Below are positions 2,143 to 32,947 of a DNA stretch of 33,892 nt, in pieces. The notes beneath the pieces are model-generated. The model searched no databases and had not been told where the DNA came from. It worked only from the letters and a program-made list of their open reading frames with translations. Every line of letters begins with the position of its first letter. The first letter of the stretch is position 1. The position numbers and the translations under genes are program-made. The stretch lies in contig CAYXNU010000001.1 in assembly GCA_964466485.1 (NCBI GenBank), forward strand, positions 1-33,892, written 5' to 3'. This DNA comes from an uncultured Ruminococcus sp. Lineage in GTDB: Bacteria; Bacillota; Clostridia; Oscillospirales; Ruminococcaceae.

Positions 2143-2171
2143 TTGACAAATCAGCCCAAACAATGTATAAT
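2143..2171 (+). promoter_or_regulatory. Sigma-70-type promoter for the serpin gene
   Basis: TTGACA (2143-2148), 17-nt spacer, TATAAT (2166-2171), both perfect consensus. This places the transcription start downstream of the ATG at 2163 and supports the 2193 start. Confidence 0.7.
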
Positions 2172-2192
2172 ATGGTAATAGGAGGGGTTAAT

Positions 2193-12180: not shown

Positions 12181-12182
12181 AA

Positions 12183-13802: not shown

Positions 13803-13827
13803 GAATATAACCTCCTATAATTTAGTT

Positions 13828-15105: not shown

Positions 15106-15125
15106 AAGGATATCCGCCTTTCAAG

Positions 15126-16809: not shown

Positions 16810-17588
16810 TATGAAAATACCCTAGTGTTAATAGTTATCTCATTGAATATAGTTTTTAGTACACTCTTTTCATTTTCCTCATATGGGAAGAAGTGTCCAC
16901 CTTTAAATTCAAACTGTTTAAAGTCCGAAGAAGTTACTCTGTTCCAGTTTTTCATGTGGTCTAGATTTGCGTCGGTATCATCTTTGCCACTTAGTGCCAC
17001 AATAGGGATATCTAAAACTTCTCCATGGTATGAATAGCTTTCATGTAGTTTATAGTCGTTAAAAATCATAGGTAGTATAAACTTAGCGAAATCGGAGTTT
17101 TCTAATAAAGCTTTAGGTGTAGCACCAACTCTAAGGAGTTCTTTTTTTAGTGCATCTATTCCCATAGAGCTTTTGTAAACCACTGGGTCTGCGTTCATAG
17201 GGGCGTGTCTACCTGCAACTATTAGCTTTTGGATATCCATGTTAAAAGCATTTCTTAAAACGTAAGCCGTTTGAAAAGCGACTATTCCACCCAAACTATG
17301 CCCATATATGTAAGTAGGGCGGTAGTCGTCACAGGAAAAGTCTGCTATTGCTTGAGAAGTTTTCTCTACTAGTTCGTTAACGTTTGTGATACAACTTTCC
17401 TTAATTCTAGTACTTCTACCAGGGTTTTAAACTGGTATTATTTCGACTAGGGGGTTATATTTTAACCAACTTCTAAATATATATACACTACCTCCAGCGT
17501 GATTGAAACAAAACATCTTGTAAGGTTTATAACTTTTTTTCAAGTTATATGGAAACCATTTTTTTAATTCAATACTACTATCTAGCAT
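16809..17588 (-). pseudogene. Type II thioesterase interrupted by an in-frame TAA (codon 54)
   Basis: My own translation from ATG 17588 gives MLDSSIELKKWFPYNLKKSYKPYKMFCFNHAGGSVYIFRSWLKYNPLVEIIPV-TAA(17427-17429)-NPGRSTR...YIYGHSLGGIVAF...GGHFF. The frame is unchanged across the stop. The total is 260 codons, the right size for a TEII. Confidence 0.75.
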
Positions 17589-17590
17589 AA

Positions 17591-20500
17591 TTACAAAGCA
17601 CTCCTAATAAACTTAGATAAATCCTCAATGTTTGGGTTGTTTAACATCTCAACTAATATGTCATTAAACATAACTTTATTTTCAAACTTATCTTTTAAAA
17701 TACTTGCTACATTACCCATAATTAAAGAGTTTGCACCTAAATCGTAAAAATCATCTGTTTTGGAGATACTGCTTATATTTAAAGCATCTTTCCAAACATC
17801 AGCGAGTATAGTTTCGATATCGTCGAAAGTTTCAACAACTTGACTGTTTTTACTGCTATAGTTTTTCAATTCTAGCATAATGCTTTCAGCAACGGACTTT
17901 CTATCAACCTTACCATTAGGTGTTAAAGGTATGTTCTCAGTAAAGAAAATCTTTTGTGGTAGCATATACTTAGGCAAGAGTTTACTAGCATAGGCTTGAA
18001 TATTTTCTTCCATAGCAGTTAAATCGCTATCAGTAGGGGAGTTAAGTTTAACGTAGGCATATAGCTTTTTTTCTTCTGCTTTTTGCCCTAATGCTACTAC
18101 AACTACATTTTCAACGTTTGGATGTTTTTGTATACCGCTTTCAACCTCTCCTAGTTCGATTCTATAGCCCATGACCTTAACTTGAAAATCTTTTCGTCCT
18201 AGGAACTCTATGTTGCCATCGAGCATATATCTACCCATGTCACCAGTTTTGTACATTAGCTGATTATCATAAGGGTTTTTGATAAACCTATTGTTAGTTT
18301 CTTCGGGGTTGTTTAAATATTCCTTAGCCAGTCCAACACCCGTGATAAATAGTTCTCCCTCCACTAGCAAAGGACAATCTTTCAAGTTGTCATCTAAAAC
18401 CCTAAAGCCTTGATTGTACATAGGTTTTCCATATGGTATGCTTGTCCATGTGGGGTTTAGAGTAGTATACTCATACAAGATAGACCATATAGATGCCTCA
18501 GTTGCACCGCCTAAACTTACACACTTAATACTCTTATTATACTTCTTAATGTCATCAAATAGGTTTAAAGCAATCCAGTCCCCCGATAGCATAACTAGTC
18601 TAACGTTAGGGAGTTCATAAGTGTTGCTATCCACAAAGTTCATGAATATTTTCATAAAGGCTGGTACACTGTTCCAAATGGTTACGTTGTACTGTTTAAC
18701 CAAATCAAACCAGTGTGACGGATTAGTGTATCTATCCAAACTAGGATATACCACTGTACCACCCACAGATAGCAACCCAAAAATATCATACACAGATAAA
18801 TCAAAGTATAGCTGAGATAGACCTATAGCAGTATCATTTTCAGTGACGTTAAACCTTTCGTTAATATCTTCTATAGTATTCACAGCTGAACCATGGTTTA
18901 TTACTACTCCTTTAGGAACTCCAGTAGAACCCGATGTATGTATCACATAGGCGGGGCTATCTAAACTAGTATCCGATTTCAAGCAGTTTCCTAAAGACTT
19001 TTCTAGGGTGTCAACATCTACCGTTATGACTTTGCTATCGTAGTCTTTGTTCACACTGGATAACGTTAATACTATCCTAATATTTGCGTTCTTTATGATG
19101 GTATTCTTTCTATCTGTAGCCTGTTGGCTGTCTATGGGAACGTATACACAACTTTCCGATAGCACACCCAATACTGAATATATTTGGTATACCGATTTAG
19201 GCATAGCTACTCCAATGCATTCCCCAGACTGAACTTGTAACTCTTTTAGCCTAGTTGCCACAGAAGAAGCATTTAGAATAACATCCTCATAGGTGTACTG
19301 AATATCATCTTGAATTACAGCAACCTTGTCTTTACGGATGTTAAACTGTTCTATAATCTTGCCATGTAGGGTATGCTTTGGAAGTTCTTTCTTAGTAGCA
19401 TTTGCAGTATCTAGTAGTAGCTTTTGTGCTTGTGGCAAAGATACATAGTTTAGGGTATTCCAAATAGTGTTATCTGTTGCTAAAGCGTTTAACAAGCTTT
19501 CAAACATTTGGAACATATCTTCAACCATGCCCTTTGGAAATACGTTGTTTCTAACGTCCCAGTTTACCCTTAAGCCAAAGTTTCCGTCCATAGCTTGACA
19601 GTCTATAAAAACTTGTGGGGTTTGACTGATACAGCTATCCGTCATAACGCCCTTAATAGACGTACTGCTCAACCCTATAGCACTAGTAAACACTATAGGC
19701 ATTAGGGAGTTTTTATTGCCTTTAACCTTTGCCAACTCTCTAATAACTTCCACCCCAGAGAATAGCCTGTGTTCCATATCGGAAAATAGTTGATTGTTCA
19801 ACTGTAGAGCATACTCTAAAAAGGTTTTCTGTTTAGACATATTAACTTCTAAAAGGTTAATGGAAGTGAAATCTCCTACAATATCCATAATCTGTTCATG
19901 CACAGGCAACCTATTTAGTACGGTTAAGTTTATACAGAAGTCTTTGTTTTTGCTCCATCTTTCGATTATAGAAGAATATGCTGTAATTATTGCACACGTT
20001 GGAGTAATTCCAAACTGTTTAGTTTTGTCTTTAAAGCGGTTGTATTTCTCAAGGGACATACTTAAACTATGCCTAGTAAAGCCCACAGGAGAGTCCGCAT
20101 TTTGAGGGAGTACTGGTAGGTTTGGGGCTAATGGAATATCTTCCAATCTGTCGCACCAATACTTCTTATCTTTGGCATAGGATATGCTATCTTTGTAGTT
20201 AGTATATGCTAACTGGTAGTCATGGAAAGTTATATCCAGTGGTTTTAACACATAGTTTGGATTAAAGTACAAACTTTCAAACTCTGAAAGTAGTAGCCAT
20301 ATACTAGCCCAATCCGCTATGATAAACTCTATTGAAAAGTTAAATAAGTCATAGTCATCTAGTTTGGTTACTTGAATATCAAAGGCAAAACCGTTTTCAA
20401 TATCGAATACTTTGTGGCTAAACTCATCACGAATGTATGACAACTTTTCTTCCCTTGCGGAATCTTCCATACCTCTTAAATCGTTCGTTTTGATAACAAA

Positions 20501-20956
20501 CTTTGGAACATCTTTCAAGACTCTTTGTAGGTTATCGCTTGATATCGACGCTCTAAGCATATCGTGTCTTTGGATTAAAGTATTCCAAATATTTTCAACT
20601 GTAGGAACGTCTAAGCTATCGTACTTTAGTTCTATGTAAATTTGACATGAAAGCCCACCATATTCAAAAATGTTACTTCTACCCATTAGGTACGATGATT
20701 GAATATCCGTCAACTGGAACTTTTCAAACACTTGCTCCCCAGTAGATTTTTTTAACAAGTCTTTCATGGAAAGACTATCCTTTAATATGTAATCTATGCA
20801 TAGTTGCTTATTAGACTTTATAAACTCAACATCTTCAGCAGTGATAACGCCTTTAGGTGCTTTGTAGCCTATCTTTCCATCTTTTACATATAGATTAACT
20901 CCTTTGTTTTGTAGTTCTGCAATATATGCCGGAACTGTAGAAACTATTCTATCCAT
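17591..20956 (-). CDS. Nonribosomal peptide synthetase, docking domain-Cy-A(Cys)-T
   Basis: Cy motifs FQLTDIQSSYLMGR, GDFTSINLLE, PIVFTSAIG, QTPQVFIDCQ. A cores HTSGSTGVPKG, YKTGD, PNGKVDRK. Carrier GANSL. ATG 20956 is preferred (AAGGAG 5 nt upstream) over 20998, which would overlap the upstream gene. Confidence 0.92.
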   Translation of the reverse strand: MDRIVSTVPAYIAELQNKGVNLYVKDGKIGYKAPKGVITAEDVEFIKSNKQLCIDYILKDSLSMKDLLKKSTGEQVFEKFQLTDIQSSYLMGRSNIFEYGGLSCQIYIELKYDSLDVPTVENIWNTLIQRHDMLRASISSDNLQRVLKDVPKFVIKTNDLRGMEDSAREEKLSYIRDEFSHKVFDIENGFAFDIQVTKLDDYDLFNFSIEFIIADWASIWLLLSEFESLYFNPNYVLKPLDITFHDYQLAYTNYKDSISYAKDKKYWCDRLEDIPLAPNLPVLPQNADSPVGFTRHSLSMSLEKYNRFKDKTKQFGITPTCAIITAYSSIIERWSKNKDFCINLTVLNRLPVHEQIMDIVGDFTSINLLEVNMSKQKTFLEYALQLNNQLFSDMEHRLFSGVEVIRELAKVKGNKNSLMPIVFTSAIGLSSTSIKGVMTDSCISQTPQVFIDCQAMDGNFGLRVNWDVRNNVFPKGMVEDMFQMFESLLNALATDNTIWNTLNYVSLPQAQKLLLDTANATKKELPKHTLHGKIIEQFNIRKDKVAVIQDDIQYTYEDVILNASSVATRLKELQVQSGECIGVAMPKSVYQIYSVLGVLSESCVYVPIDSQQATDRKNTIIKNANIRIVLTLSSVNKDYDSKVITVDVDTLEKSLGNCLKSDTSLDSPAYVIHTSGSTGVPKGVVINHGSAVNTIEDINERFNVTENDTAIGLSQLYFDLSVYDIFGLLSVGGTVVYPSLDRYTNPSHWFDLVKQYNVTIWNSVPAFMKIFMNFVDSNTYELPNVRLVMLSGDWIALNLFDDIKKYNKSIKCVSLGGATEASIWSILYEYTTLNPTWTSIPYGKPMYNQGFRVLDDNLKDCPLLVEGELFITGVGLAKEYLNNPEETNNRFIKNPYDNQLMYKTGDMGRYMLDGNIEFLGRKDFQVKVMGYRIELGEVESGIQKHPNVENVVVVALGQKAEEKKLYAYVKLNSPTDSDLTAMEENIQAYASKLLPKYMLPQKIFFTENIPLTPNGKVDRKSVAESIMLELKNYSSKNSQVVETFDDIETILADVWKDALNISSISKTDDFYDLGANSLIMGNVASILKDKFENKVMFNDILVEMLNNPNIEDLSKFIRSAL
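20774..20956 (-). other. TubC-N-like N-terminal NRPS docking domain
   Basis: VPAYIAELQNKGVNLYVKDGKIGYKAPKGVITAEDVEFIKSNKQL follows the TubC docking pattern (L..L...GV.L...g.L.Y.APKG.lt.e....i...K). It precedes the Cy domain. Confidence 0.6.
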
Positions 20957-20967
20957 AAGAACTCCTT

Positions 20968-22062
20968 TCAAATAAGACACTCCTCTTGAATATCGCATAT
21001 ATGTGAACTATATACGCTGTAATCTTCAAAGACGTTTAAACTTTCAAGGTTGTGCCAAATATCTTCAACGTACTTTGAACAGTATATAGGATACACACCG
21101 CTATCAATATTTCCGTTGTATATAGATAGTGCTTGTGCCACGGCGACTGCTCCCGTTAAGTACTGTTGACTTTCCACGGTTAATGCGGTAGTAACTGCCT
21201 TAGGTTTTCCGTCGTTGTCTAGACCGTCAAGTTGTACTAGGTATTGAACATATTTCCTATCGTCAAGCACATCTTGTTTAGATACTTCAACTAATTCATC
21301 TATAGTGTTTTCAATACTGTTTTTGTACTTTGAGGGCAACTTCTCAAAAAATTCTAACATATTCTTTCCACTGGTAGCACTGTACCATTCACTGTGGTTG
21401 CACTGTGTAAAGTCTGCCACATACTTAGTTTCGTCATCGTAGTAAGGGAATAGCTTTACTGCATTAAAAAGTTTTGGAAGTACAATCTTATTAAAAGCCC
21501 TGTTGCTATTGAAAAAAGAGTTTCTATCCTTATAGATATACATAACATCGTTGTTGTTGCCATGCATAATGCCGTTTAAATAGTCTTTACTGGCAATGTG
21601 ACTAAAAACTCCTTTTATCTCATATATGGATACTATGTTTTCCACTTTGCTAAAACCTTTGGACTGCACTAGGGGTAACATTCCTGAAACCCCTGGCACT
21701 GACCCTGAGCAGTATACTATAGCGTTATTAGTGTTAGTATACTTGCAAGTATCCACATTGCACAAGCCAACATCTACTAGATGTGTTTGCTTTTTAATAG
21801 CCATATCTATTAGAAGTGGTGTACTCTTGTAAGATGAACCTGAACAGTTAATAACGATACTACATCCGTTGAAAAATTCCTCAAGTGTATCTTGTGAGAA
21901 TATATCAACGTTCTTACAGATGGCATTATTTATACCACTAGGTATACTATTGCTATTGATGTTTCTACTGCCAACTTTAATAGTTTCGTTTGGCAAAACT
22001 TTAGATAGTATCTCTAAAGCCTTAGAGCCTATACTTCCAGTACCGCCCAATAGACCTATCAT
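20968..22062 (-). CDS. Saccharopine dehydrogenase-like NAD(P)-binding oxidoreductase
   Basis: N-terminal Rossmann motif MIGLLGGTGSIGSKA, then ...VDIFSQDTLEEFFNGCSIVINCSG...LVDVG, typical of the Sacchrp_dh_NADP fold. AAGGAGGTG RBS upstream of the ATG. Confidence 0.6.
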   Translation of the reverse strand: MIGLLGGTGSIGSKALEILSKVLPNETIKVGSRNINSNSIPSGINNAICKNVDIFSQDTLEEFFNGCSIVINCSGSSYKSTPLLIDMAIKKQTHLVDVGLCNVDTCKYTNTNNAIVYCSGSVPGVSGMLPLVQSKGFSKVENIVSIYEIKGVFSHIASKDYLNGIMHGNNNDVMYIYKDRNSFFNSNRAFNKIVLPKLFNAVKLFPYYDDETKYVADFTQCNHSEWYSATSGKNMLEFFEKLPSKYKNSIENTIDELVEVSKQDVLDDRKYVQYLVQLDGLDNDGKPKAVTTALTVESQQYLTGAVAVAQALSIYNGNIDSGVYPIYCSKYVEDIWHNLESLNVFEDYSVYSSHICDIQEECLI

Positions 22063-22076: not shown

Positions 22077-23825
22077 TTATATAATAGACCAATCTTTTTC
22101 GGCATTCTGTAGTTTTACCATGCTGTTAAACATTCCGTTTTTAGCAAGTAGTTCGCTAGGAGTGCCATACTCTACAACCTTGCCATTAGATAGCACTATA
22201 ACTTTATCAGCTGACATAATAGTCCTCATTCTGTGGGCTATAATTACTACCGTTTTGTTATCTATTAACTTGCTTATAGCAGATTGTATCAAAGTTTCGT
22301 TTTCCACATCGAGGGAGGCAGTAGCCTCATCGAGTAGGACTACAGGGGCATTTTTTAGCATAGCTCTAGCTATTGAAATTCTTTGTCTTTCGCCACCAGA
22401 TAACATACTACCGTTTTCCCCTATTATAGTTTTGTAGCCATTAGGTAGTTTACGGATAAACTCATCGCATTGAGTTACCTTAGCAATTTCGATAACTTCC
22501 TCATCGGTTGCGTTGGTATTGCCTATCCTTATATTTTCCATAATGGTATCATTAAAGAGTGTAACGTCTTGAAAAACCATAGAGAACTTAGTTAGGTAGG
22601 TTTCAATATCGAAAGACTTTACATCTTCTCCGCCTAGCGTTATAGAACCCTTGTCTATATCCCAAAAGCGAGATATTAACTTTGCTATAGTGGATTTTCC
22701 ACCGCCCGAAGTACCTACCAAAGCAGTAACTTCCCCTTGATTGATTTTCAAAGATATCCCATTGATAACGTCTTCTTCCTTGTCGTTGTAAGAAAAGTAC
22801 ACATCTTTAAATTCTATATCATAGTTGTTAGGCATATCGGTTTTGCTACCCACTTGAATAGGTTGTTCGTTAATCTCACGCATACGCTCAACAGATAGCA
22901 ACACGTTAAAGGTAGCTGTTAAACTTTGTAGAGAACTTATCAAAGCGTCGTAAATTTTAGAAGCGGTAATTAAGAATATCAAGAAAGTAAATACATCTAT
23001 AGAGCCATCCATTAAGCATATAGACCCCATCAAGATTGTACTAGCTATTCCCACCTTTAAAACCATCTGCGAAAGCATAATAATAACACCTGTGAATATT
23101 TCACCACTTATGCAACTCTTTTCAAAGTCGTCAAGTTGGGAATCCAAACTAGCTATGTACTTTTCACACTGGTTTGTAGATTTAATATCCTTAATATTTT
23201 CCAAATATTCTTGAATAGCAGTGTTGTATTGCATCTTGCTTTTGGCGGTTTTAAGTCTAGTGCTATCTTGAGATTTTTTAGTTATAACTACAATTAGCAA
23301 GGCTACAGGAACAACCCACAAAAGTGCAATAGCCATCTTAACGTTTAACACGAACAAGAATACTCCCACAATGACTATATATACACAAGAACCAAATAGG
23401 TTTGGTAAGAAGTGAGATAACGCTGTTTCGATATCTGCACAGTCGTTCATTATTGAGATAGTTAAATCGGAAAGATTTTTCTTACTAAAAAACGATAGTG
23501 GCAACTTCCTAATGTGTTCCGCAAGGGAAATCCTTTGGTTTGCACTTTCGCTATACGATGACAAAAATGTAGAGTTATATTGAATATACTGTGTAATAAA
23601 GATTAATATCAACGCTATGATACACAATGCAACGTATAGCCCTAAATTTATACTATAGCTTGAACCATATAAGATAGGTTTGCAAAACTCCTTAAGTAAC
23701 ATACACACGATACCTAACGGCATCATAAGAACTATATTAGAAATCGCACAACACCAAACAGACTTTACTAAATCTTTAGCACCCTTGTCGGTTAAAGCGA
23801 ATATTCTTTTAAAAAGATTTATCAC
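22077..23825 (-). CDS. ABC transporter, fused permease/ATP-binding protein (type I exporter fold)
   Basis: 582 aa with an N-terminal 6-TM region. Walker A GTSGGGKST, signature LSGGERQR, Walker B VVLLDEATASLD. GTG start with AGGGGGGTG RBS. Confidence 0.88.
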   Translation of the reverse strand: MINLFKRIFALTDKGAKDLVKSVWCCAISNIVLMMPLGIVCMLLKEFCKPILYGSSYSINLGLYVALCIIALILIFITQYIQYNSTFLSSYSESANQRISLAEHIRKLPLSFFSKKNLSDLTISIMNDCADIETALSHFLPNLFGSCVYIVIVGVFLFVLNVKMAIALLWVVPVALLIVVITKKSQDSTRLKTAKSKMQYNTAIQEYLENIKDIKSTNQCEKYIASLDSQLDDFEKSCISGEIFTGVIIMLSQMVLKVGIASTILMGSICLMDGSIDVFTFLIFLITASKIYDALISSLQSLTATFNVLLSVERMREINEQPIQVGSKTDMPNNYDIEFKDVYFSYNDKEEDVINGISLKINQGEVTALVGTSGGGKSTIAKLISRFWDIDKGSITLGGEDVKSFDIETYLTKFSMVFQDVTLFNDTIMENIRIGNTNATDEEVIEIAKVTQCDEFIRKLPNGYKTIIGENGSMLSGGERQRISIARAMLKNAPVVLLDEATASLDVENETLIQSAISKLIDNKTVVIIAHRMRTIMSADKVIVLSNGKVVEYGTPSELLAKNGMFNSMVKLQNAEKDWSII

Positions 23826-23841
23826 AAAGTCACCCCCCTAA

Positions 23842-25590
23842 TTAAAGTTTCCAGTTTATCGCAGATTGATATTCTTCCCACATGGAGGCATATACTCCAT
23901 CTTTGGCTAACAACTCTTTATGTGTTCCGCTTTCGCAAATAGAGCCTTGTTCCATAACTATTATGTTATCGGCATTGCACACCGTTGAAAGCCTATGGGC
24001 AATCATTAGGACTGTTTTACCTTTAATTAATCTTTCTAGTGCCTTTTGAATTTCGTGTTCATTTTCGGGGTCAGCAAAGGCTGTAGCCTCGTCTAGTATT
24101 ACTATTGGAGCGTCTTTTAGTATAGCCCTAGCAAGGGTAATCCTTTGCACTTCTCCCCCCGATAGGTACACACCATTAGAGCCTATAACAGTATTCAATC
24201 CATCGGGGAACTTTCTAACTATATCCATGCACATGGCACTTTCCAAAGCTGACATAACTTCCGTATCAGTAGCGGTAGGCTTAGCCATCTTAACGTTTTC
24301 TAGAATGGTAGTTTTAAATATATGGTTATCTTGAAATACAAAAGATACTCTATCCATAAGTTCACTGGTGGATATATCCTTAACGTTCACACCACCTATA
24401 GATACCGAACCGCTTTCAACATCCCAAAACCTAGGTATTAGACTAGCTACAGTAGTCTTACCACTACCCGAATGCCCAACTATTGCAGTAGTGCTTTTAT
24501 CTGGAATGTTAAAAGTCACACCGTTTAGTATAGTTTTGCCATCCTGTTCATACTTAAAGAAAACATCCTTAAACTTAATGGAATTGTCTTTGGGTACTTG
24601 TGGAGTAGCAGTTTCGTCCAAAGTAGTTTCGTTCAAGATACTTTCTATCCTATGTTGAGCCTCTTTGGCTGACATTAAACTTTCACTTAAACTTATAACT
24701 TTGCTAAGCATACTAGCACACAACGGTGTAAATATAGTATAGAATATAAAGTTTACTAAAAACCTTTGATAGTCCACAGCAGACGCTACTAACAAAATAG
24801 CACCTATCACAAGGAACACTACACTAGCGTTTATAGATACTATAGACGAACACATGGGCATTCTAACGCTAATAGTATAGTTCACAGACCAATCTTTGTA
24901 GCGTTGTATTGAACTAAAAAAGTTCTTAAATGAGAATATACTCTGCTGAAAAGTTTTAACTACTGGAATACCCCTAATGTATTCAACAGCTTGACTATTC
25001 ATATCGTCTAGGGCGTTTTGGTACTCTTTCATGGATTGCATAAGCTTTTCGCCCGTCATACTACCCATAAAGAAGATACTTATAAATATCGGTACTAGAC
25101 CAATCAAGCCCAGTTTCCAGTCGATTTTAAATAGCACTGCAATAACACCTATTAGCGTTACTACAGCCCCAATGCAATCAGGGAGAAGATGTGCTAAAAA
25201 TTCTTCAGTCCTTGAGGCACTTTCGTCTATGGTACGTCTTAACTTGCCACTGCTATTGTTGGTAAAGTATCCTAGTGGTAGGTTAATCAAGTGGTGCAAC
25301 GACATACTTCTCATGTTGGTTGCAACTTTAAAAGCTGTAATATGCGAAAATATCAGCGATAGTATATATATGAAAATACTAACAATAGAGAACACCACCG
25401 CCATAATTCCATAATGTTTTAAGTTTGTAGCTTTTGAAAAGTCTGGGTAGTACTTGAAAACATCCGAAACTACTTTCCAAATGTAGTAGTATGGCACAAG
25501 CGATATTATCGAACTTAAACCCGAAAATATCCACGCAACCACCATTAACGTTTTATGCTTACCCGCATAGTAAAAAAGATTCCTTTTCAC
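23842..25590 (-). CDS. ABC transporter, fused permease/ATP-binding protein (type I exporter fold), likely heterodimer partner
   Basis: 582 aa with a TM region. Walker A GHSGSGKTT, signature LSGGEVQR, Walker B IVILDEATAFAD. GTG start. Confidence 0.88.
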   Translation of the reverse strand: MKRNLFYYAGKHKTLMVVAWIFSGLSSIISLVPYYYIWKVVSDVFKYYPDFSKATNLKHYGIMAVVFSIVSIFIYILSLIFSHITAFKVATNMRSMSLHHLINLPLGYFTNNSSGKLRRTIDESASRTEEFLAHLLPDCIGAVVTLIGVIAVLFKIDWKLGLIGLVPIFISIFFMGSMTGEKLMQSMKEYQNALDDMNSQAVEYIRGIPVVKTFQQSIFSFKNFFSSIQRYKDWSVNYTISVRMPMCSSIVSINASVVFLVIGAILLVASAVDYQRFLVNFIFYTIFTPLCASMLSKVISLSESLMSAKEAQHRIESILNETTLDETATPQVPKDNSIKFKDVFFKYEQDGKTILNGVTFNIPDKSTTAIVGHSGSGKTTVASLIPRFWDVESGSVSIGGVNVKDISTSELMDRVSFVFQDNHIFKTTILENVKMAKPTATDTEVMSALESAMCMDIVRKFPDGLNTVIGSNGVYLSGGEVQRITLARAILKDAPIVILDEATAFADPENEHEIQKALERLIKGKTVLMIAHRLSTVCNADNIIVMEQGSICESGTHKELLAKDGVYASMWEEYQSAINWKL

Positions 25591-25616
25591 AAAAAATGTT
25601 ACACTCCCTTTAAATT

Positions 25617-26999
25617 TTATAGTTTTGTTAAAACTAACGATTTATTACAGGTTTTCGATACCAACTCCTCATCATGAGTAACTATTAGTATTATCTTTCC
25701 ATCTTTAGATAGCGACTTAATTAAGTTAGAAACTCTAAGCATATCATCATAATCAAGTCCACTGGTAGGCTCGTCAAATACTAATATATCCCTATTGCAT
25801 AGATAACTATCGGCTATCGCTAAACGCTGTGCTTGTCCTCCCGAAAGTGCCATAGGATGACGGTTTTCAAAGCCACTTAGCCCCAACTTGTGGAGTATAT
25901 CTTTTGCATCGCTTTCAGTAGCGGAGTTTCCTAGCATAGTTTCTCCAATAACGCTATTTGAAAACAGTTGATGATTTACATCTTGCATGATTAAAAAAGT
26001 TAGTCTTTGCCTTTGCTTAGCAGATAGTTCTTTGCCATTTAGAGAAATACTCCCTGACTTTTGTTTTATCAAACCGCATAGGCACTTTATCAGTGAACTT
26101 TTACCAACACCGTTGTTCCCTAAGATAGCTAATATATCACCCTTGTTTAGCGAAAACGATATGTTTTCTTGAACGGTTTTCTTACCAAAAGAAAGTTTTA
26201 AATCTTTTACGCAAAGGGTATCACTGGAAGTATATTCGCAAGTGGATACCTTTAGCGGTTCTCTAACGATTTGACGTAAGCCTAAAAGTTCCCTCTTAGA
26301 AGTAGAAAGTTTCTTAAACTCTAAGTTAGACATAGCTAACTCTAGCTTACCACTATCGAAATAGAAAGCACGGTCTATAAGGTCTGCTATGTACCAAAAT
26401 CTATGTTCGGCAATGATTATCGTTTTGCCTTGAGATTTTAAAATCTTAAGTATGTTGGATAGATGTTCCATGCTCTTTATATCCAAATTAGATGACGGCT
26501 CATCCAAAAGTATAATATCACTGCCCATAGCGTACACCGACGCAATAGCTATCTTTTGCTTTTGCCCACCTGATAGCTTAAATAAATCCTTGTCGAGTAG
26601 TTCTTGTATATCTAAATCTTTAGTAGTTTCTTGTAATCTTCGTTGCATTGTGGGTCTGTCAACTCTAAGGTTTTCCATTCCGAATACTATTTCGTCAGTG
26701 GTATTGAGATTAAAAAACTGTGACTTTGGGTTTTGGAATACCGAACCAACCATCTTTGAAAGTTCCCACGATTTCATTTCACTAATGGGATAGCCATCAA
26801 TCAACGCAGAACCGCTTATATTTCCCTCTTGAAAGTTTGGGATTAGTCCATTAATAATCTTTGTGACAGTAGTCTTTCCGCTACCGCTTTTGCCACAAAG
26901 TAACACAAACTCTCCACTATTGATTTTAAAGCTACAGTCTGTTAAACTTTTACTTTGATTTTCACCATAGGTATAGCTAACGTTGTCGAATACTACCAT
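25617..26999 (-). CDS. ECF-type transporter ATPase with duplicated ABC domains (EcfA-EcfA' fusion)
   Basis: Two nucleotide-binding units: GKSGSGKTT / LSGGQKQK / ILLDEPSSNLD and GNNGVGKSS / LSGGQAQR / LVFDEPTSGLD. There is no TM region. ATG 26999 overlaps the upstream stop (ATGGTAG). Confidence 0.85.
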   Translation of the reverse strand: MVVFDNVSYTYGENQSKSLTDCSFKINSGEFVLLCGKSGSGKTTVTKIINGLIPNFQEGNISGSALIDGYPISEMKSWELSKMVGSVFQNPKSQFFNLNTTDEIVFGMENLRVDRPTMQRRLQETTKDLDIQELLDKDLFKLSGGQKQKIAIASVYAMGSDIILLDEPSSNLDIKSMEHLSNILKILKSQGKTIIIAEHRFWYIADLIDRAFYFDSGKLELAMSNLEFKKLSTSKRELLGLRQIVREPLKVSTCEYTSSDTLCVKDLKLSFGKKTVQENISFSLNKGDILAILGNNGVGKSSLIKCLCGLIKQKSGSISLNGKELSAKQRQRLTFLIMQDVNHQLFSNSVIGETMLGNSATESDAKDILHKLGLSGFENRHPMALSGGQAQRLAIADSYLCNRDILVFDEPTSGLDYDDMLRVSNLIKSLSKDGKIILIVTHDEELVSKTCNKSLVLTKL

Positions 27000-27664
27000 A
27001 TAAATCCACACACCACCAATCCTAAAAAGATTACCATTAAAACGAAATCCCACCAGTGAAACTTAACTTCTATAAAGGAAGTTTTTTCGTTAGGGTTTTC
27101 AATACCTCTTGTAACTGCCGAGGCTGATAAATCATCCGAAATTTGCATACTATTAACAATCATCGGCATATAAAGATATTCTATCTTATTAAATATTCCC
27201 TTAATCTCTCTTAATTTCATAGCGTTTCGTATTTCCGAAAACTCCTCTTTAATCGTTGGAAAATATCGGATAAGTACTGCTAGTGAAATTATTAAGTTAT
27301 TAGGGAGTTTCATTAACCTAAGCGATTCTAATATGGAACGGACTTTGGTAGTCTTTAGTAGGTATGTGGAGGGAAGTGTGCAAGGAAAAAGCCATCTAAA
27401 GTATATGAACACCGAGAACAACATACCAACGCTAGTTGAAACTTTAGGGATTAGCAAAAACTCTATTGCCGTCAATATGCCATATACTATGCCACATTCA
27501 ATAAGTTCTTTCCACAAGTTGGATACTATAAACATTACTATAAATATACATGACATTATCGCTATTATCCATGTGTTGTTGTTGAAATTCATAAATATTG
27601 CCATGATAGTCGCTAGTAACAGAAACACTTTAGTTCTAGGGTCGATTTTATTTGAAAAATCCAT
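26993..27664 (-). CDS. ECF transporter transmembrane (T) component, EcfT/CbiQ family
   Basis: 223-aa polytopic membrane protein between the S-like and ATPase genes. Arg-containing coupling-helix-like motifs AMKLREIKG and SAVTRGIENP. Confidence 0.75.
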   Translation of the reverse strand: MDFSNKIDPRTKVFLLLATIMAIFMNFNNNTWIIAIMSCIFIVMFIVSNLWKELIECGIVYGILTAIEFLLIPKVSTSVGMLFSVFIYFRWLFPCTLPSTYLLKTTKVRSILESLRLMKLPNNLIISLAVLIRYFPTIKEEFSEIRNAMKLREIKGIFNKIEYLYMPMIVNSMQISDDLSASAVTRGIENPNEKTSFIEVKFHWWDFVLMVIFLGLVVCGFIW

Positions 27665-27665
27665 G

Positions 27666-28253
27666 CTATACTATACCCGCCTTGATAAAGTGTTTTTTCA
27701 TTAAATTAGTACCTAAAAAGCCCCCAACTAACGAACCTACTAGCACACTTAATAGCACTATTACAATTGCAGGTGTGGAAGTCATTAAAGTAAGTTTTTC
27801 CAAATATTCGTCACTAAAACCAGAATCCCTCATGGATTGCATATAACTGTTGGTAGTCAACCAAACTGGTAAAAAGTCACCGATAAAGCCATAACTAAAT
27901 AGTATAAATGCACCTATCTGTGTGGATTTCTTTTTGTAGTCGCCAAACTTTAAAATTAATTCTGCCAACAAACCAAACACAATGCAAGTAATAGTTATCA
28001 TGTAACTTGCCACAAAAAAGACTATTCCTGTTAATAACGATACCATAAAAACAGCACCCGTTTTGTGTATCTTTGCGATTAATAGCATAAATATAGGTGC
28101 TAATAATATCGCATCTATGAAGTGCGAGGCAAACCAAACTACTGGGGCTATACCGCCACAAATCATGAAAACCATCCTAATAGCAACGCATAAAGCCCCT
28201 ATTATGCCTATGGTGATAGCATCTTTGGATGTGATTTTTTTACTATTCTTCAA
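27666..28253 (-). CDS. Putative ECF transporter substrate-capture (S) component, possibly MptD/Trep_Strep family
   Basis: 195 aa, about 6 TM helices, first gene of the S-T-A set. The C-terminal ...LMKKHFIKAGIV resembles my memory of MptD-family proteins. TTG start with GGAGAG 6 nt upstream. It is not BioY-like. Confidence 0.6.
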   Translation of the reverse strand: MKNSKKITSKDAITIGIIGALCVAIRMVFMICGGIAPVVWFASHFIDAILLAPIFMLLIAKIHKTGAVFMVSLLTGIVFFVASYMITITCIVFGLLAELILKFGDYKKKSTQIGAFILFSYGFIGDFLPVWLTTNSYMQSMRDSGFSDEYLEKLTLMTSTPAIVIVLLSVLVGSLVGGFLGTNLMKKHFIKAGIV

Positions 28254-28289
28254 TTAAAACTCTCCAATCTTTATATCAATTTATTAGTT

Positions 28290-28299
28290 AGCGTACGCT
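28290..28299. promoter_or_regulatory. Perfect 10-bp palindrome AGCGTACGCT in the operon leader (candidate operator)
   Basis: Self-complementary. It lies 11-21 nt downstream of the predicted minus-strand -10 box and 37 nt upstream of the S-component start codon. Confidence 0.4.
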
Positions 28300-28310
28300 T
28301 ACCGAGTAAT

Positions 28311-28340
28311 ATTATACTACACTGAAAATTTAAATACTAA
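28311..28340 (-). promoter_or_regulatory. Candidate promoter of the NRPS/transport operon (good -10, weak -35)
   Basis: On the minus strand, TATAAT (28316-28311) is preceded at 18 nt by TTAGTA (28340-28335), which matches TTGACA at 3 of 6 positions. Confidence 0.5.
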
Positions 28341-28366
28341 TCCAAAACGCTCAAAGTAATCCAAAA
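28338..28366. repeat. Two perfect 10-bp direct repeats TAATCCAAAA with a 19-bp period (candidate AraC-type binding sites)
   Basis: Copies at 28338-28347 and 28357-28366. The proximal copy overlaps the weak -35 of the minus-strand promoter. The repeats lie between the divergent promoters. Confidence 0.55.
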
Positions 28367-28402
28367 ATGCAGATATATTTTTAAAACAACTTTCCCCACC
28401 AC

Positions 28403-28432
28403 TTGACAAAAACCACTAGTTTATGTTATAAT
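28403..28432 (+). promoter_or_regulatory. Strong sigma-70-type promoter upstream of the AraC-family gene
   Basis: TTGACA (28403-28408), 18-nt spacer ending in the extended -10 TGT, then TATAAT (28427-28432). This predicts a leader of about 190 nt before ATG 28631. Confidence 0.65.
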
Positions 28433-28630
28433 AGCTTTAGATGAGCTGTTAAAAAAGTATTTGTTTGAATGTTTTTTAGGACAAATACTTTCAACTAGAT
28501 TATATTTTTATATTGATAAAGCTATGTTTTACGTCAAAATAGAACATATTATATATTGTATTTGAGTTAGCTTAGGCTAACTAAATTATATTAAAAAATT
28601 TAAATCAATATAAAACGGGAGTGTTATTTT

Positions 28631-29581
28631 ATGAGTAAAAATCAAGTTTTCAAAGAGTTTTCTAACCTAAACGATTGTACAATATACAGGTACACACAAG
28701 GCGAAAAAGAAAGCACTATAAATACCATAAGCGTATTTAATGGTATTAATATAATATTAATGAACTTAAACTCTTGTAATATTGCACCTGATATATCTAT
28801 GTACAAGCCTAATAACATTCTATTAATAAACCTGTGCATATTTGGAAGATGTGAAATGACTCTAAGGAACAACCAAAAAACCTCGCTAAATGCAGACGAA
28901 ATCTCATTTAATATAACATATCCCTCTAAGTGCAACTACCCCTTTGGTTACTATAAAGAAATAGGCTTACTAATAGATTTTAACTCCCTTGATATCGATA
29001 CTAAAAAAATGCTCTCTAGATTTAACATTAATCTTGAAAAAATTCAAAAATATATCATAAACCAAAATGGATATAAAATATACAACATAGGCAAAAACCA
29101 AAAGTTGAAATCTATCATAAAAACATTAACTCTCCAAAATGACTTAATAGAGTACAGATTATCCACATTAAAGATACTATACAACATTTCAAAGTATATA
29201 GATATTTTCATATCTAGCGAACAGGCTTACTTGCCTAGTTTGAAAATAGATATAGTACAAAAAGTGCGTTTAAAAATCTGTGGCGATTTAAAAAAGCATT
29301 ATTCAACAAAAGACCTATCAAATGAGTTTAATATTAGCAGTAGCACCCTTGAAAGATATTTCAAGGCAGTATATGGCATAAGCATTTCTAAGTTTCTCCA
29401 AAAAGAACGCATGAACGTTGCTAGTAACTTGCTAAAAGACACAACCATGAAAATCTCCGATATTGCGTACTCTGTGGGATATGAAAACCAAAGTAAGTTT
29501 ACCGCAACTTTCAAAAAAACTTTTGGTGAAACTCCTAACAACTTTAGGAAGTTCAATAGGCATATATTAAACGCCAATTAG
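28631..29581 (+). CDS. AraC/XylS-family transcriptional regulator
   Basis: C-terminal double HTH: STKDLSNEFNISSSTLERYFKAVYGISISKFLQKERMNVASNLLKDTTMKISDIAYSVGYENQSKFTATFKKTFGETPNNFR. The N-terminal ~200 aa are not assignable. RBS GGGAG upstream. Confidence 0.88.
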   Translation: MSKNQVFKEFSNLNDCTIYRYTQGEKESTINTISVFNGINIILMNLNSCNIAPDISMYKPNNILLINLCIFGRCEMTLRNNQKTSLNADEISFNITYPSKCNYPFGYYKEIGLLIDFNSLDIDTKKMLSRFNINLEKIQKYIINQNGYKIYNIGKNQKLKSIIKTLTLQNDLIEYRLSTLKILYNISKYIDIFISSEQAYLPSLKIDIVQKVRLKICGDLKKHYSTKDLSNEFNISSSTLERYFKAVYGISISKFLQKERMNVASNLLKDTTMKISDIAYSVGYENQSKFTATFKKTFGETPNNFRKFNRHILNAN

Positions 29582-29604: not shown

Positions 29605-29635
29605 AAAATCCACTCCAAATACAGAGTGGTTTTTC
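29605..29635. terminator. Bidirectional terminator between the convergent AraC and bioB genes
   Basis: A-run, CCACTC (29610-29615), 8-nt loop, GAGTGG (29624-29629), then TTTTT. Confidence 0.55.
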
Positions 29636-29652: not shown

Positions 29653-30615
29653 TTATCTTGAAATGTCAAAGCCCATTTCTGTTAGCATTTGCAAATCGTC
29701 CTTGATATTGTTGCCAGAAGTAGTAAGCATATCGCCTGTAATGGTAGCGTTTGCACCGCAATTGAAAGCTACTTTTCCTGAGTTTTCCATGGAGTTACGA
29801 CCTCCCGCAAGTCTAACGTCAACGGTTGGATTGATGTATCTAAACATTGCTATAGTTCTCAAAATATCGTCAGTGCTAATAGGTGCTTGATTTTCAAGTG
29901 GAGTACCCTTAATAGGCATCAACACGTTAATAGGAATGGAGTCAACCTGTAGTTCGGATAGGCTTATAGCCATATCTAATCTATCTTCCCACGTTTCGCC
30001 CATGCCTATAATACCCCCTGAACAGACACGGAAACCAACGCTCTTAGCACGTTTTATACAAGCTATCTTGTCGTCGTAGGTGTGGGTTGTGCATATATTA
30101 GGGAAGTTTCTCTTAGAAGTTTCTATGTTTGAGTGGTACATTCTAACACCGCTATCCCAAAGCTTTTGGAACTGTTCGGTAGTTAGTAAGCCATGTGAAG
30201 CACATAGTTCTATATCGCATTCATGGTTCATTCTGTCATAGGCATTTATAGCCTTGTCGAAATCCTTACCGCTTAGGGTTCTACCAGCGGTAACTATGGA
30301 ATATCTATGTACCCCTTGACTTGCATTCTTTTTGCAATCTTCTATTATTGTGTCAACGTCTAAGAAATCATACTCATTTACACCTGTGCAGTTGTGTCCA
30401 GACTGTGCACAGAACTTACAGTTTTCACTACATTTTCCGCTACGTCCATTTATGATAGTACATAAATCCACATGGTTACCACATAGATTTTTTCTAATTT
30501 CGTCAGCACCCTCACAGAGTTCTTTAAGGTCAGCAGTTAGAAAAAATTCCAAATCTTCTCCACGTTGTATACGTCTGCCATTGATAATTTCTTTTGCTAA
30601 AGATTTAACGTTCAT
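29653..30615 (-). CDS. bioB: Biotin synthase (radical SAM)
   Basis: CSENCKFCAQS (CxxxCxxC), YHSNIETS, GGIIGMGET, and a typical length of 320 aa. Confidence 0.9.
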   Translation of the reverse strand: MNVKSLAKEIINGRRIQRGEDLEFFLTADLKELCEGADEIRKNLCGNHVDLCTIINGRSGKCSENCKFCAQSGHNCTGVNEYDFLDVDTIIEDCKKNASQGVHRYSIVTAGRTLSGKDFDKAINAYDRMNHECDIELCASHGLLTTEQFQKLWDSGVRMYHSNIETSKRNFPNICTTHTYDDKIACIKRAKSVGFRVCSGGIIGMGETWEDRLDMAISLSELQVDSIPINVLMPIKGTPLENQAPISTDDILRTIAMFRYINPTVDVRLAGGRNSMENSGKVAFNCGANATITGDMLTTSGNNIKDDLQMLTEMGFDISR

Positions 30616-30775: not shown

Positions 30776-32380
30776 TTACTTTAATCTCACGGTGTAAGTA
30801 TCATCGCCGTAGCCACCCAAAATACATACCACTGGAAGTTCAAGAGCGTTCTCATCTATTACAAAACCTATCTTCATAGTGCGAGTTTCATTAGGCTGTA
30901 GAGTTATGCAGTATGCAGACTTGTTGTAGTTTTCGTAGCTGTCGAAAGCAACGGGTTCGTTCAAGCATTGGAACATATTACTATAGTTTAGACTAAACTG
31001 TCTATAGAACTCTTGTTCGGTGTCTGTAGTGCTTGTGATAGTAGCATCCACAATAATAGCCTTGTAACCATCCTTTATGTTTCCGTTTTCGTCAAGATAT
31101 TCACTTGCAGTATTGCTAACTTGTAAGCCGTCAAAGTTATCTGCTATGGTGTAGCCGTCTATGCTTAGATTGAAACCATAGCCGTCATCATCATTGTAAG
31201 TAAAGGTATCTTCCCCGACTGTTGGAATATCTTTGAAATCTTCTTCAAGTTTAGCGTTTACTAAACTCTTAACCTCATCCATAGGGGGATTGTATATAGG
31301 TTCTACATCTACATAGCATTGACCGTTTGCAACGTCTAAGCCAGTATTAAAGCCACGTTCTATAGGCACTTCAAAGGAGTATACAGCATCTGCTTGAGTG
31401 TCGTTGTAAAGCCCTACAGTTATGGAAGTAGCACCTATCATAGGGGTTTCATACTTTGGACTGGATGTATCGCTATTCCAGTTTAGTTCTTTGCCAGTGC
31501 TGTCATGTAGAAGAATATAGAAACCCTCTTGACAGTCTATATCTATAGTAGTTCCCGCAGGTGATACCGTCACGCTGTGTAGAGTATTTCCCCCTTGAGT
31601 CTGTTCTACGGAGTAGGTATCTAGTTGGGGGTTGGTGCTAGTAATCTCAAAGCTTGTAGATACTACATCGTCTAGATACTTGTTATCTCCTACACGAGTT
31701 CTACTTTCATAGTAAAGGTTGTCATAGTTAAAGTCTTGATGGATACTGTCAAAAGCTGTATTAACTCTAAAGTCTATATCTACAGTAGCACCTTCGATGT
31801 TTTCAACGTTGGAAATATCCACGTTGATTTTTCCAACGAATAGCCCTAACTCGTCACTACTTGCGGTAAAAGTGTCAGTAGACTTCTCACCATTTTCTAA
31901 AGATTCCCCATTAATCTTGATATCCATACCACCGTACATACAGTTGCACTGTGCTAAATCTTCAGCGTTGGCTTGAATGCCGTACGTTATATATAGTGAA
32001 CTATCATCGCAGTAGTAGCTGTAGATGTATGGAGTTATGCAGTGTTCGTATGATGTAGTATCAGCGTTGGCGGATTGTGTAACGTCTATAGCGTAATCGT
32101 TAGTGGGGTTTACCTCGTTGCGTTGTTGAATCTTAGCTACTAGGCTTTCAAATATAGTAGTATTGTCTGCCATGACTGGTAGTGCCATTGTGGATACTCC
32201 TACCACAGCCACCAAACACGCAGAGAATATTGCCACTTTTCTGCCCTTGCGAGTAGTGTTCTTTAGTGGTGTTTTTTCTTGATTTTTCATTTCATCTTCT
32301 ACCTTTCTAAGTATGCGATACTGTAAGTTATCGTTGGGTTTAAAGTTGTCTATTGCATGAATAAAGTCCTTCTTTTCCAT
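30776..32380 (-). CDS. Putative anti-sigma factor: single-pass membrane protein with a large extracytoplasmic domain
   Basis: It lies immediately downstream of, and overlaps, the ECF sigma gene. Short cytoplasmic N-terminus, TM segment VAIFSACLVAVVGVSTMALPVMA, and about 460 aa outside the membrane. No enzymatic motif recognised. Confidence 0.5.
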   Translation of the reverse strand: MEKKDFIHAIDNFKPNDNLQYRILRKVEDEMKNQEKTPLKNTTRKGRKVAIFSACLVAVVGVSTMALPVMADNTTIFESLVAKIQQRNEVNPTNDYAIDVTQSANADTTSYEHCITPYIYSYYCDDSSLYITYGIQANAEDLAQCNCMYGGMDIKINGESLENGEKSTDTFTASSDELGLFVGKINVDISNVENIEGATVDIDFRVNTAFDSIHQDFNYDNLYYESRTRVGDNKYLDDVVSTSFEITSTNPQLDTYSVEQTQGGNTLHSVTVSPAGTTIDIDCQEGFYILLHDSTGKELNWNSDTSSPKYETPMIGATSITVGLYNDTQADAVYSFEVPIERGFNTGLDVANGQCYVDVEPIYNPPMDEVKSLVNAKLEEDFKDIPTVGEDTFTYNDDDGYGFNLSIDGYTIADNFDGLQVSNTASEYLDENGNIKDGYKAIIVDATITSTTDTEQEFYRQFSLNYSNMFQCLNEPVAFDSYENYNKSAYCITLQPNETRTMKIGFVIDENALELPVVCILGGYGDDTYTVRLK

Positions 32381-32852
32381 AGTCTGTATCCTCCTGTAAA
32401 TCTAATTTAAGCTTTTCCCTACCACGTTTTAGACGCATCTTAATAGCCGACCTACTAAGTTTTAAAGCTGTTGCTATCTCATCTATAGAGTAGCCCTCGT
32501 AGTAGTATAGGTACAAGACTACTCTATACTTAGGCTGTAGATTGTATAGCTTTTCGGTAACTATGTTGGTGTTGTCGTCGGTGTAGGGCATTTCTTGAAT
32601 GGTTTCTATGCCTACAGTGTTTCTGTTCCAAAAAGTACCCAAATGGTTTTTACAAGCGTTAATAGTAACCCTAATAATCCAATAACGCTCATGCTGTGGG
32701 CTTTCAAACTGTGGTGCATTAGTGAATAACTTTACAAATACATCTTGAGTTATATCTTCCGCATCGGATTGATTGCCTAGGTACGTCATGGAAAGTTTAA
32801 ACACTAAATCGCTATAAGTGGAGTACTTTTCTTCAAAGAGTCTGTTATCCAT
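32340..32852 (-). CDS. ECF-subfamily (sigma-70 family) RNA polymerase sigma factor
   Basis: Region 2-like DAEDITQDVFVKL...ERYWIIRVTINACKN and region 4 HTH YYYEGYSIDEIATALKLSRSAIKMRLKRGREKL. ATG 32852 has AAGGAGG 9 nt upstream, so it is preferred over 32888. Confidence 0.85.
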   Translation of the reverse strand: MDNRLFEEKYSTYSDLVFKLSMTYLGNQSDAEDITQDVFVKLFTNAPQFESPQHERYWIIRVTINACKNHLGTFWNRNTVGIETIQEMPYTDDNTNIVTEKLYNLQPKYRVVLYLYYYEGYSIDEIATALKLSRSAIKMRLKRGREKLKLDLQEDTDYGKEGLYSCNRQL

Positions 32853-32947
32853 TGCCTTTAACCTCCTTTCAATATAGATACAAACCAAAGCTAAAAAAAG
32901 TCACATAAAAGATAAGATTTATTTTTTGTTTTTTTTTGGAAATTTTA

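Follow-up and report, generated by a model that had tools for sequence, protein, structure and literature searches.

We analyzed a 33,892-nt stretch (33.9 kb; G+C content, 36%) of contig CAYXNU010000001.1 from an uncultured Ruminococcus sp., referred to here as the window, in which five transport genes on the minus strand (22077-28253) head a nonribosomal peptide synthetase (NRPS) operon. Taken as a whole, our proposal is that these five genes probably supply the transport functions of a metallophore locus of the equibactin type (yersiniabactin/pyochelin-like). A sequence-only reading of this DNA had described the five genes, and all of them were found, with their families assigned by Pfam and NCBIfam. 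From 28253 down to 22077, they encode the S component, the T component, and the two-domain ATPase (AA') of an energy-coupling factor (ECF) transporter, followed by two fused ATP-binding cassette (ABC) proteins, ABC1 and ABC2; a reductase gene and then the NRPS set lie downstream in the same direction. The five genes overlap or are separated by no more than 26 nt, and the minus strand from 28253 to 4414 carries a single string of tightly spaced or overlapping genes. The only terminator-like match among the transport genes falls within the ABC2 coding sequence, and the number of such matches equals that expected from shuffled sequences. The observation that five transport genes head the NRPS operon is confirmed.

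The order S-T-AA'-ABC-ABC-reductase corresponds, gene for gene, to eqbH-I-J-K-L-M of the equibactin locus, eqbA-N, on ICESe2 of Streptococcus equi (Heather et al. 2008, PMC3672683). In that locus, EqbH is a membrane protein, EqbI is a "cobalt transport" (CbiQ-type) membrane protein, and EqbJ is an ATPase of at least 419 aa (Table S2, PMC3672683). EqbK and EqbL are fused permease-ATPases with 28-30% identity to YbtP and YbtQ, and EqbM, a member of the saccharopine dehydrogenase family, is required for equibactin activity (PMC3672683). When eqbHIJ was deleted in a derepressed eqbA mutant, iron toxicity and equibactin-dependent 55Fe accumulation were lost, and the supernatant of the eqbHIJ/eqbA mutant contained more active product; the authors concluded that eqbHIJ is needed for import (PMC3672683). 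ECF-mediated uptake of the product-metal complex, as proposed by the sequence-only reading, is thus the best-supported reading, in view of the eqb gene order, the eqbHIJ genetics, and the shared operator core described below. However, the unusualness claimed for it has been overtaken. The statement that ECF transporters are not known for NRPS metallophores does not hold, given the eqbHIJ genetics of 2008 (PMC3672683), the loci of Clostridioides difficile RT023 (PMC6814731) and Staphylococcus lugdunensis (PMC12709192), and the heme system LhaSTA (PMC7299338).

For the family census, one genome per species was scanned, at least 563 S-family members were found, and the best 80 loci were kept (L001-L080); their S proteins are 28-39% identical to that of the window. 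Neighborhood counts refer to the 46 closest loci having at least 8 kb on both flanks, with a distance limit of 10 kb for NRPS genes. T came after S in 76 of the 80 loci, and the order S-T-AA' was seen again in the same number, far beyond chance. In the 46 full-flank loci, T was present in all 46, the double ATPase in 42, at least two fused ABC genes in 34, and an AraC gene of the same family as that of the window in 26. The common form of this cassette is S-T-AA'-AraC-ABC-ABC, and a second form is (TetR)-ABC-ABC-S-T-AA'.

The S component (27666-28253, minus strand, 195 aa) is encoded by the first gene of the operon, in the EqbH position. It matched Pfam Trep_Strep (PF09605; E 1.7e-48; 165.5 bits, cut-off 28.7) and NCBIfam TIGR02185, "MptD family putative ECF transporter S component" (126.5 bits, cut-off 76.45). 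At E <= 0.01, Trep_Strep was the only Pfam match, with none to CbiM/NikM, BioY, ThiT, RibU, or FolT, and the placement of S outside the vitamin and Ni/Co families was borne out by this hidden Markov model search. The start codon is TTG at 28253, with GGAG approximately 9 nt upstream; residues 1-29 can be aligned to homologues, with conservation of 90% or more at D11 and G16, and a relative with 76% identity (P0002) is also 195 aa long. The TTG start is therefore correct, and the automatic gene call (P0001, 166 aa), which loses the first transmembrane helix, is too short. The AlphaFold2 model of S had a pLDDT of 91, and its best fold matches in the PDB were both ECF S components, namely the YkoE-type 5EDL (probability 1.00, TM 0.57, E 9.9e-3) and TmRibU 5KBW (probability 0.96). 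No PDB match reached E <= 0.001, and with such weak E-values the model backs an S-component fold rather than any closer kinship. At the C-terminus, residues 186-195 (27666-27698) follow the pattern K-K-H-F/L-x-K-A-G-I-V, which is invariant in all 26 aligned family members and by itself retrieved at least 563 family members. The tail may serve in docking to T or to the ATPases.

The T component (26993-27664, minus strand, 223 aa), of the EcfT/CbiQ type and in the EqbI position, scored 62.7 bits against Pfam CbiQ (cut-off 25). Its score against the NCBIfam CbiQ equivalog was 37 bits, with a cut-off of 111.8, indicating a T component that is not CbiQ proper. Its sequence holds the Arg-containing stretches AMKLREI and AVTRGIE, which we take to stand in the place of the T-component coupling motifs. 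The fused A-A' ATPase (25617-26999, minus strand, approximately 460 aa), in the EqbJ position, has two ABC_tran domains in one protein by Pfam. Its best NCBIfam models were ECF_ATPase_1 and ECF_ATPase_2 (approximately 287 bits, under the equivalog cut-offs of 315 and 330). The open reading frame (ORF; 25617-27053) extends to a GTG at 27053; however, the ATG at 26999 (460 aa) is the likely true start because homologues align only from residue 12-19. By its components, S-T-AA' would be classed as a group I (dedicated) ECF transporter, having an S fold, an adjoining EcfT/CbiQ T protein, two ECF-type ATPase domains, and no binding protein; no extracytoplasmic substrate-binding protein was found among the ORFs at 4414-29581.

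ABC1 (23842-25590) and ABC2 (22077-23825), in the EqbK and EqbL positions, are adjacent minus-strand genes for fused permease-ATPase half-transporters of 582 aa each, with ABC_membrane and ABC_tran domains. The description of a fused half-transporter pair in a siderophore-type locus, as with YbtPQ and IrtAB, therefore stands. The ATP sites of both proteins look canonical (Walker B D-E, LSGGE, and H-loop His). Among half-transporter chains in the PDB, ABC1 scored 301 bits with IrtA, 299 with YbtP, 264 with Sav1866, and 263 with YbtQ, and ABC2 scored 279 bits with Sav1866 and 270 with both TM0288 and YbtQ. On these scores, ABC1 is clearly nearer to IrtA/YbtP than to Sav1866/YbtQ, and it can be called YbtP/IrtA-like. 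ABC2 appears YbtQ-like but not distinctively so, its match with YbtQ being no better than those with the exporters Sav1866 and TM0288.

YbtPQ of Yersinia and IrtAB of Mycobacterium are importers of the metal-metallophore complex, and the two transporters of the window might have the reverse of the roles proposed here, with the ABC pair importing the metal-metallophore and the ECF transporter carrying a free divalent metal or another chelate. The nearest half-transporter chains to ABC1, the importers IrtA and YbtP, point in this direction, and the ECF systems CbiMNQO and NikMNQO have free metal ions as their cargo. The ABC pair is also tied more tightly to NRPS genes than the ECF genes are. In the closest related NRPS cluster (L081, Logan ERR11638251), ABC1 and ABC2 are 81-82% identical to those of the window, and no ECF or AraC genes were found in the 5.6 kb upstream of the pair, where unrelated genes stand; the pair is retained, too, in the 34 of 46 loci mentioned above, which are mostly NRPS-less. 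However, in S. equi the deletion of eqbHIJ stopped equibactin-dependent iron toxicity, whereas toxicity still occurred after the deletion of eqbKL and cross-feeding activity was only cut to one half, a hint of efflux (PMC3672683). In the window, moreover, S has no CbiM/NikM match and ABC2 shows no preference for YbtQ over the exporters, and we regard the reversal of roles as unlikely. The eqbKL data disfavor an essential import role of the ABC pair, and its retention in non-producers disfavors a plain product exporter. Our guess for the pair is export or recycling of the emptied ligand, which fits both the S. equi data and the retention in non-producers.

Downstream of the transport genes, a saccharopine-dehydrogenase-family NAD(P) oxidoreductase (20968-22062, minus strand, 364 aa; Pfam Sacchrp_dh_NADP) occupies the EqbM position and is presumed to be a thiazoline reductase. 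It is followed by a block of biosynthetic genes (4414-20998, minus strand), assigned from Pfam domains and by reading the sequences. The block begins with an NRPS gene (17591-20998) with docking, Cy, A, and T domains by Pfam and a broken type II thioesterase gene (16809-17588), and it also holds a phosphopantetheinyl transferase (PPTase), a thioesterase-carrier protein (TE-PCP), a stand-alone C domain, an aryl-AMP ligase, and an NRPS of 2588 aa that has two more Cy-A modules and a methyltransferase embedded in it. Each of the three A domains carries the strings FDLSVYD, WNSVPA, and ATEASIW, which we take as a cysteine-type A-domain signature, and DxxxxDxxS motifs, presumably those of heterocyclization (Cy) domains, were read in the NRPS sequences. 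Because there are three cysteine-type A domains, the product would be expected to have a salicylate cap and three cysteine-derived thiazoline/thiazolidine rings, of the pyochelin/yersiniabactin/equibactin kind. The type II thioesterase is split into a 53-aa N-terminal ORF (17427-17588; ...FCFNHAGGS...) and a 161-aa C-terminal ORF (16809-17294), and its orthologue in L081 is intact (262 aa); the split points to a frameshifted pseudogene or, alternatively, to a mistake in the assembly.

No salicylate synthase gene was found among the ORFs and Pfam domains of the window, and equibactin production in S. equi needs external salicylate (PMC3672683). Both facts would suit an ECF transporter that imports the aryl starter salicylate, which the cluster does not make, rather than the finished chelate. 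Nevertheless, eqbHIJ mutants in salicylate medium had extracellular activity above that of the parent (PMC3672683), and genomes without NRPS genes also keep the cassette, behind an operator that responds to metal. Salicylate import is thus very improbable as an explanation of the ECF genes.

EqbA is a repressor of the DtxR family that lacks an SH3 domain. Its published operator in S. equi is AACTATTATTGTTAGATGTATCTAACAATAATAGTT, a palindrome that was needed for EqbA binding in gel shift assays, where binding was enhanced by Fe2+, Zn2+ and, to a lesser degree, Mn2+. The core of this palindrome, GTTAG-N6-CTAAC, is the same as that of an operator in the window, and the window copies are predicted EqbA-type sites. 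Within the 377 bp that separate S from the divergent AraC gene, the palindrome AGTTAGCTTAGGCTAACT occupies 28565-28582; it is an exact copy (AGTTAG-N6-CTAACT) located 48 nt upstream of the AraC ATG and 8 nt downstream of a weak promoter-like -10 element (28552-28557) before the AraC gene. A copy with one mismatch on the minus strand (GTAAG-N6-CTAAC, 28287-28302) lies between the -10 element and the ribosome-binding site of S, 8 nt downstream of TATAAT (28311-28316); its position relative to the S start is the same as in 45 related loci. Two further exact copies are intragenic. One, found by the motif scan, lies within the AA' gene in the linker between the ATPase domains (26325-26342). The other lies within the first NRPS gene, approximately 785 nt from its start (20198-20215), and is kept in L081 (at 11036) and in another NRPS-linked locus, L084 (at 10069), with identical arms and different spacers. 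Its codon positions (Q-L-A-Y-T/S-N) are kept in these two clusters, which are 68-79% identical in protein, and its arms are perfect at wobble sites. A roadblock, looping, or no function at all are the candidate explanations for the intragenic copies.

Three exact copies of GTTAG-N6-CTAAC were counted in the window against 0.06 expected, and none of 3000 simulations reached three. The scan of the 80 related loci, which covered 1.28 Mb, gave 106 exact copies, and of the spacers from 0 to 12 nt between the arms only that of 6 nt was enriched, the others giving 0-1 copies each. The operator, written R-GTTAG-N6-CTAAC-Y, is nearly always intergenic and typically stops 14-60 nt short of an operon's first gene. 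It is present in 62 of the 80 loci and lies at most 300 nt upstream of a cassette gene in 53. The genes it precedes include S genes, fused ABC pairs, AraC genes, second S paralogues, a leucine-carboxyl-methyltransferase-like gene and, in four loci (L010, L025, L028, and L029), ZIP metal transporter genes. The ZIP genes behind the operator support a metal-starvation regulon, whatever the ligand, and the motif counts together point to an EqbA-type metal regulon across Firmicutes. An EqbA-like gene was not found within the window and may be located elsewhere in the genome; EqbA-like regulators of approximately 125 aa with a DACRIEH cysteine motif occur in 16 of the 80 loci.

Other readings of the motif were set aside. 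The palindrome at 28565-28582 matches a DtxR/IdeR box at 16 of its 19 bp; reading it as such a box in full was given up, the conserved unit being the 16-bp GTTAG-N6-CTAAC with a 6-nt spacer only. An RNA hairpin was ruled out by invariant arms, a free spacer, and the lack of compensatory changes in the arms; invariant arms with a free spacer fit a protein-bound DNA palindrome. No Fur box was found near the operon at three or fewer mismatches, and the total count of such boxes was under chance expectation. No sign of a riboswitch or another known RNA element in the leader came from Rfam: the full window had no match at the gathering score, and 28150-28750 had none even at E <= 1.

The divergent AraC-family regulator (28631-29581, plus strand, 316 aa; Pfam HTH_18 and HTH_AraC) is 22-26% identical over approximately 300 aa to the cassette AraC proteins of relatives in 44 of the 80 loci and belongs to the same family. 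Two exact direct repeats, TTTTGGATTA, are located on the minus strand over the S promoter (28338-28347 and 28357-28366). They are spaced 19 bp apart, are the sole exact copies in the window, and overlie a poor -35 element, which makes them a candidate AraC activator site. Facing AraC on the plus strand, a perfect sigma-70 consensus promoter (28403-28432; TTGACA-18-TATAAT with TG, 12 of 12) lies approximately 200 nt upstream of the AraC start. It would yield a long AraC leader containing the exact operator palindrome, which was also scored as a terminator-like hairpin. In L081 (5353-5649), the ABC pair comes first in the operon, and an exact operator directly adjoins a TTGACT-17-TATAAT promoter.

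Several results weigh against the proposal that the five genes serve a metallophore made by their own locus. Only 3 of the 46 closest full-flank homologues have an NRPS gene within 10 kb. The NRPS-linked S proteins do not form a single clade; they are scattered in a neighbor-joining tree calculated without support values. The S family is thus not NRPS-specific, and the word "dedicated", as applied by the sequence-only reading to the link with the NRPS, has to be given up, also in view of L081, where the 5.6 kb upstream of the ABC pair show no ECF genes, which suggests that the ECF part is dispensable in cis. The frequent retention of the ABC pair without an NRPS is hard to reconcile with a transporter that does nothing but export a self-made product. 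In the window itself, the pathway may be impaired because the type II thioesterase gene is broken. The kinship with EqbH, EqbI, and EqbJ is proposed on the basis of synteny, published annotation, and a common operator; a profile search from 26 S proteins listed 120 family members, none of them named S. equi, and a search with the window reductase gave only two relatives, neither from S. equi. Finally, the structure of equibactin was never determined, chrome azurol S (CAS) tests were negative, and EqbA senses Fe2+, Zn2+, and Mn2+; with the structure undetermined and the CAS tests negative, the ligand and even the metal are uncertain.

These counts would suit a cassette that is a general metal-starvation or foreign-metallophore uptake unit, with the adjacency to NRPS genes reflecting shared regulation only. 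Among the closest full-flank homologues, 43 of 46 keep the cassette without a nearby NRPS; the operator is present in most of the related loci, its regulon includes ZIP transporters, and the scatter of NRPS-linked S proteins agrees with such a unit. However, in the window, in L003 (Clostridium senegalense JC122), and in L084, the transport and NRPS genes are in one tightly packed co-directional string, and EqbHIJ uptake in S. equi depended on the product of its own locus (PMC3672683). We therefore hold it improbable that the adjacency reflects regulation alone, and uptake of the product-metal complex is kept as the preferred reading.

The arrangement of the NRPS-linked examples is variable. 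In L003, L015, and L026, NRPS genes stand on one side or the other of the cassette, always in the same direction; L084 and a Clostridium butyricum megaplasmid with an annotated NRPS/PKS (polyketide synthase) provide further examples. The ECF genes of L084 are present, and three biosynthetic genes separate them from the ABC pair. Together with L081, this arrangement indicates that the cassette is a mobile functional unit whose ECF part can be missing in cis. In L003 (11764-15032), the double ATPase and the first fused ABC gene are each split into two ORFs, by frameshifts or sequencing errors. Five Bifidobacterium spp. loci (L033, L041, L050, L065, and L071) keep S-T-AA' without a fused ABC pair, AraC gene, or operator, and the gene after S-T-AA' encodes a conserved protein of 213 aa without any match in Pfam.

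In the mechanism that we propose, the NRPS genes would make a salicylate-capped product with three thiazoline/thiazolidine rings, and S-T-AA', by analogy with EqbHIJ, would be a dedicated (group I) ECF importer for it. On the outer side of the membrane, the MptD-family S component would bind the product in its metal-loaded form. As in ECF transporters generally, S would then topple within the T scaffold, and the cargo would be let go inside on cycling of the A-A' ATPase. ABC1 and ABC2 would act on the same ligand as a YbtPQ/IrtAB-like exporter-fold heterodimer, most likely exporting or recycling the metal-free ligand, with import also possible. When metal is plentiful, an EqbA-like repressor of the DtxR family, encoded elsewhere, would sit on the operators at the AraC and S promoters. 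YbtA and PchR are AraC-type activators of their siderophore systems; after release of the repressor, AraC would similarly activate the S promoter through the TTTTGGATTA repeats. The transporter and AraC cassette would be self-contained, widespread in Firmicutes, and joined to NRPS clusters more than once.

A broader version, which we offer tentatively and hold as possible though doubtful, treats the six genes of the MptD ECF transporter, the AraC sensor, and the ABC pair as a common, self-contained unit for uptake and recycling of metallophores in gut and soil Firmicutes, under an EqbA-type repressor of the DtxR family that acts through GTTAG-N6-CTAAC. The ECF transporter would import the chelate and the ABC pair would return the emptied ligand; most carriers would pirate thiazoline-type metallophores, NRPS clusters would have captured the cassette several times, and the intragenic operators would be extra repressor sites.

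By itself, the window would receive an ordinary annotation, that of an equibactin-like biosynthetic cluster with transport and regulatory parts. Newly seen here are the EqbA operator core in three copies in the window, the operator in 62 of 80 loci, an S family that is mostly NRPS-less, and a related cluster (L081) that is ECF-less upstream. To our knowledge, no ECF transporter for a siderophore-type ligand has been characterized biochemically or structurally, and the S. equi genetics of 2008 are the sole functional evidence. If MptD-family S components do bind bulky metal chelates, the substrate range of ECF transporters would extend beyond vitamins, Ni/Co, and heme. The neighborhood and operator data also suggest that the system is frequent among gut anaerobes that do not produce a metallophore themselves, which bears on competition for metals in the microbiome.

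Directly beyond the AraC gene lies the biotin synthase gene bioB (29653-30615, minus strand; NCBIfam 407.6 bits), with a bidirectional terminator-like hairpin beside it at 29610-29629. Biotin transport, considered for the ECF genes in view of the adjacent bioB, was ruled out by the lack of a BioY match and by the terminator-like hairpin after bioB. Further on, an overlapping pair of ORFs (30776-32888, minus strand; 182 and 534 aa) resemble, judged from their sequences, a sigma-70/extracytoplasmic-function-type sigma factor and, after it, a putative anti-sigma or surface protein. On the other side, just outside the NRPS cluster, a bacterial serpin of 478 aa (2163-3599, plus strand; Pfam Serpin, E 3.9e-66) adjoins a GH31 glycosidase gene.

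Among known systems, CbiMNQO, NikMNQO, and the vitamin ECF systems share with the window the CbiQ family of T components, ECF-type ATPases, and the S-component fold, whereas the window S matches none of CbiM/NikM, BioY, ThiT, RibU, or YkoE by sequence family. YbtPQ of Yersinia and uropathogenic Escherichia coli and IrtAB of Mycobacterium are, like ABC1 and ABC2, fused permease-ATPase heterodimers in siderophore loci; ABC2 pairs with YbtQ rather than YbtP, and the N-terminal siderophore-interaction (reductase) domain of IrtA is not present in either 582-aa protein. LhaSTA of S. lugdunensis, a heme-specific ECF system for iron acquisition under iron limitation (PMC7299338), is likewise a dedicated S-T-A set; unlike the window system, it takes heme rather than an NRPS product, belongs to the isd locus, and has no paired exporter-fold ABC proteins. 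The namesake of the MptD family, as the sequence-only reading correctly stated, is the mpt locus of Mycobacterium avium subsp. paratuberculosis; this operon, mptABCDEF, lies on the metal-related LSP14 island (PMC4132290). Likened here by description, it unites genes for ABC transporters on an island with many genes of metal metabolism; it differs from the window in being high-GC actinobacterial, with a virulence and metabolism phenotype of the mptD mutant.

Closer counterparts are found in C. difficile RT023, S. lugdunensis, and Clostridium kluyveri (in its NRPS cluster 1), which combine an equibactin-like NRPS with an ECF-type set of an ATPase, an Ecf "cobalt transporter", and a membrane protein (PMC6814731, PMC12709192). 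The C. difficile conjugative element 023_CTn1 carries an equibactin-like set that, besides the Ecf cobalt transporter and membrane protein, has a regulator of the AraC type, a pair of ABC proteins, and a saccharopine dehydrogenase (PMC6814731), and a dedicated ECF-type importer was named for the equibactin-like cluster of S. lugdunensis in a 2025 survey (PMC12709192). These loci, likened through their published descriptions, differ from the window in arrangement and regulators. The equibactin locus itself shares with the window, besides the gene order, a salicylate-AMP ligase with a Cy-domain NRPS, the lack of a salicylate synthase, and the operator core GTTAG-N6-CTAAC. The differences are that the S. 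equi transport genes are mid-operon whereas those of the window head the operon, that a single A domain was reported in EqbE compared with three cysteine-type A domains in the window, that the window has a divergent AraC gene and no EqbA gene, and that no conjugative-element genes were seen in it. The layout was already known, and the window is best placed as a divergent addition to the equibactin-type loci, with the transport genes first, a divergent AraC gene, and EqbA-type operators.

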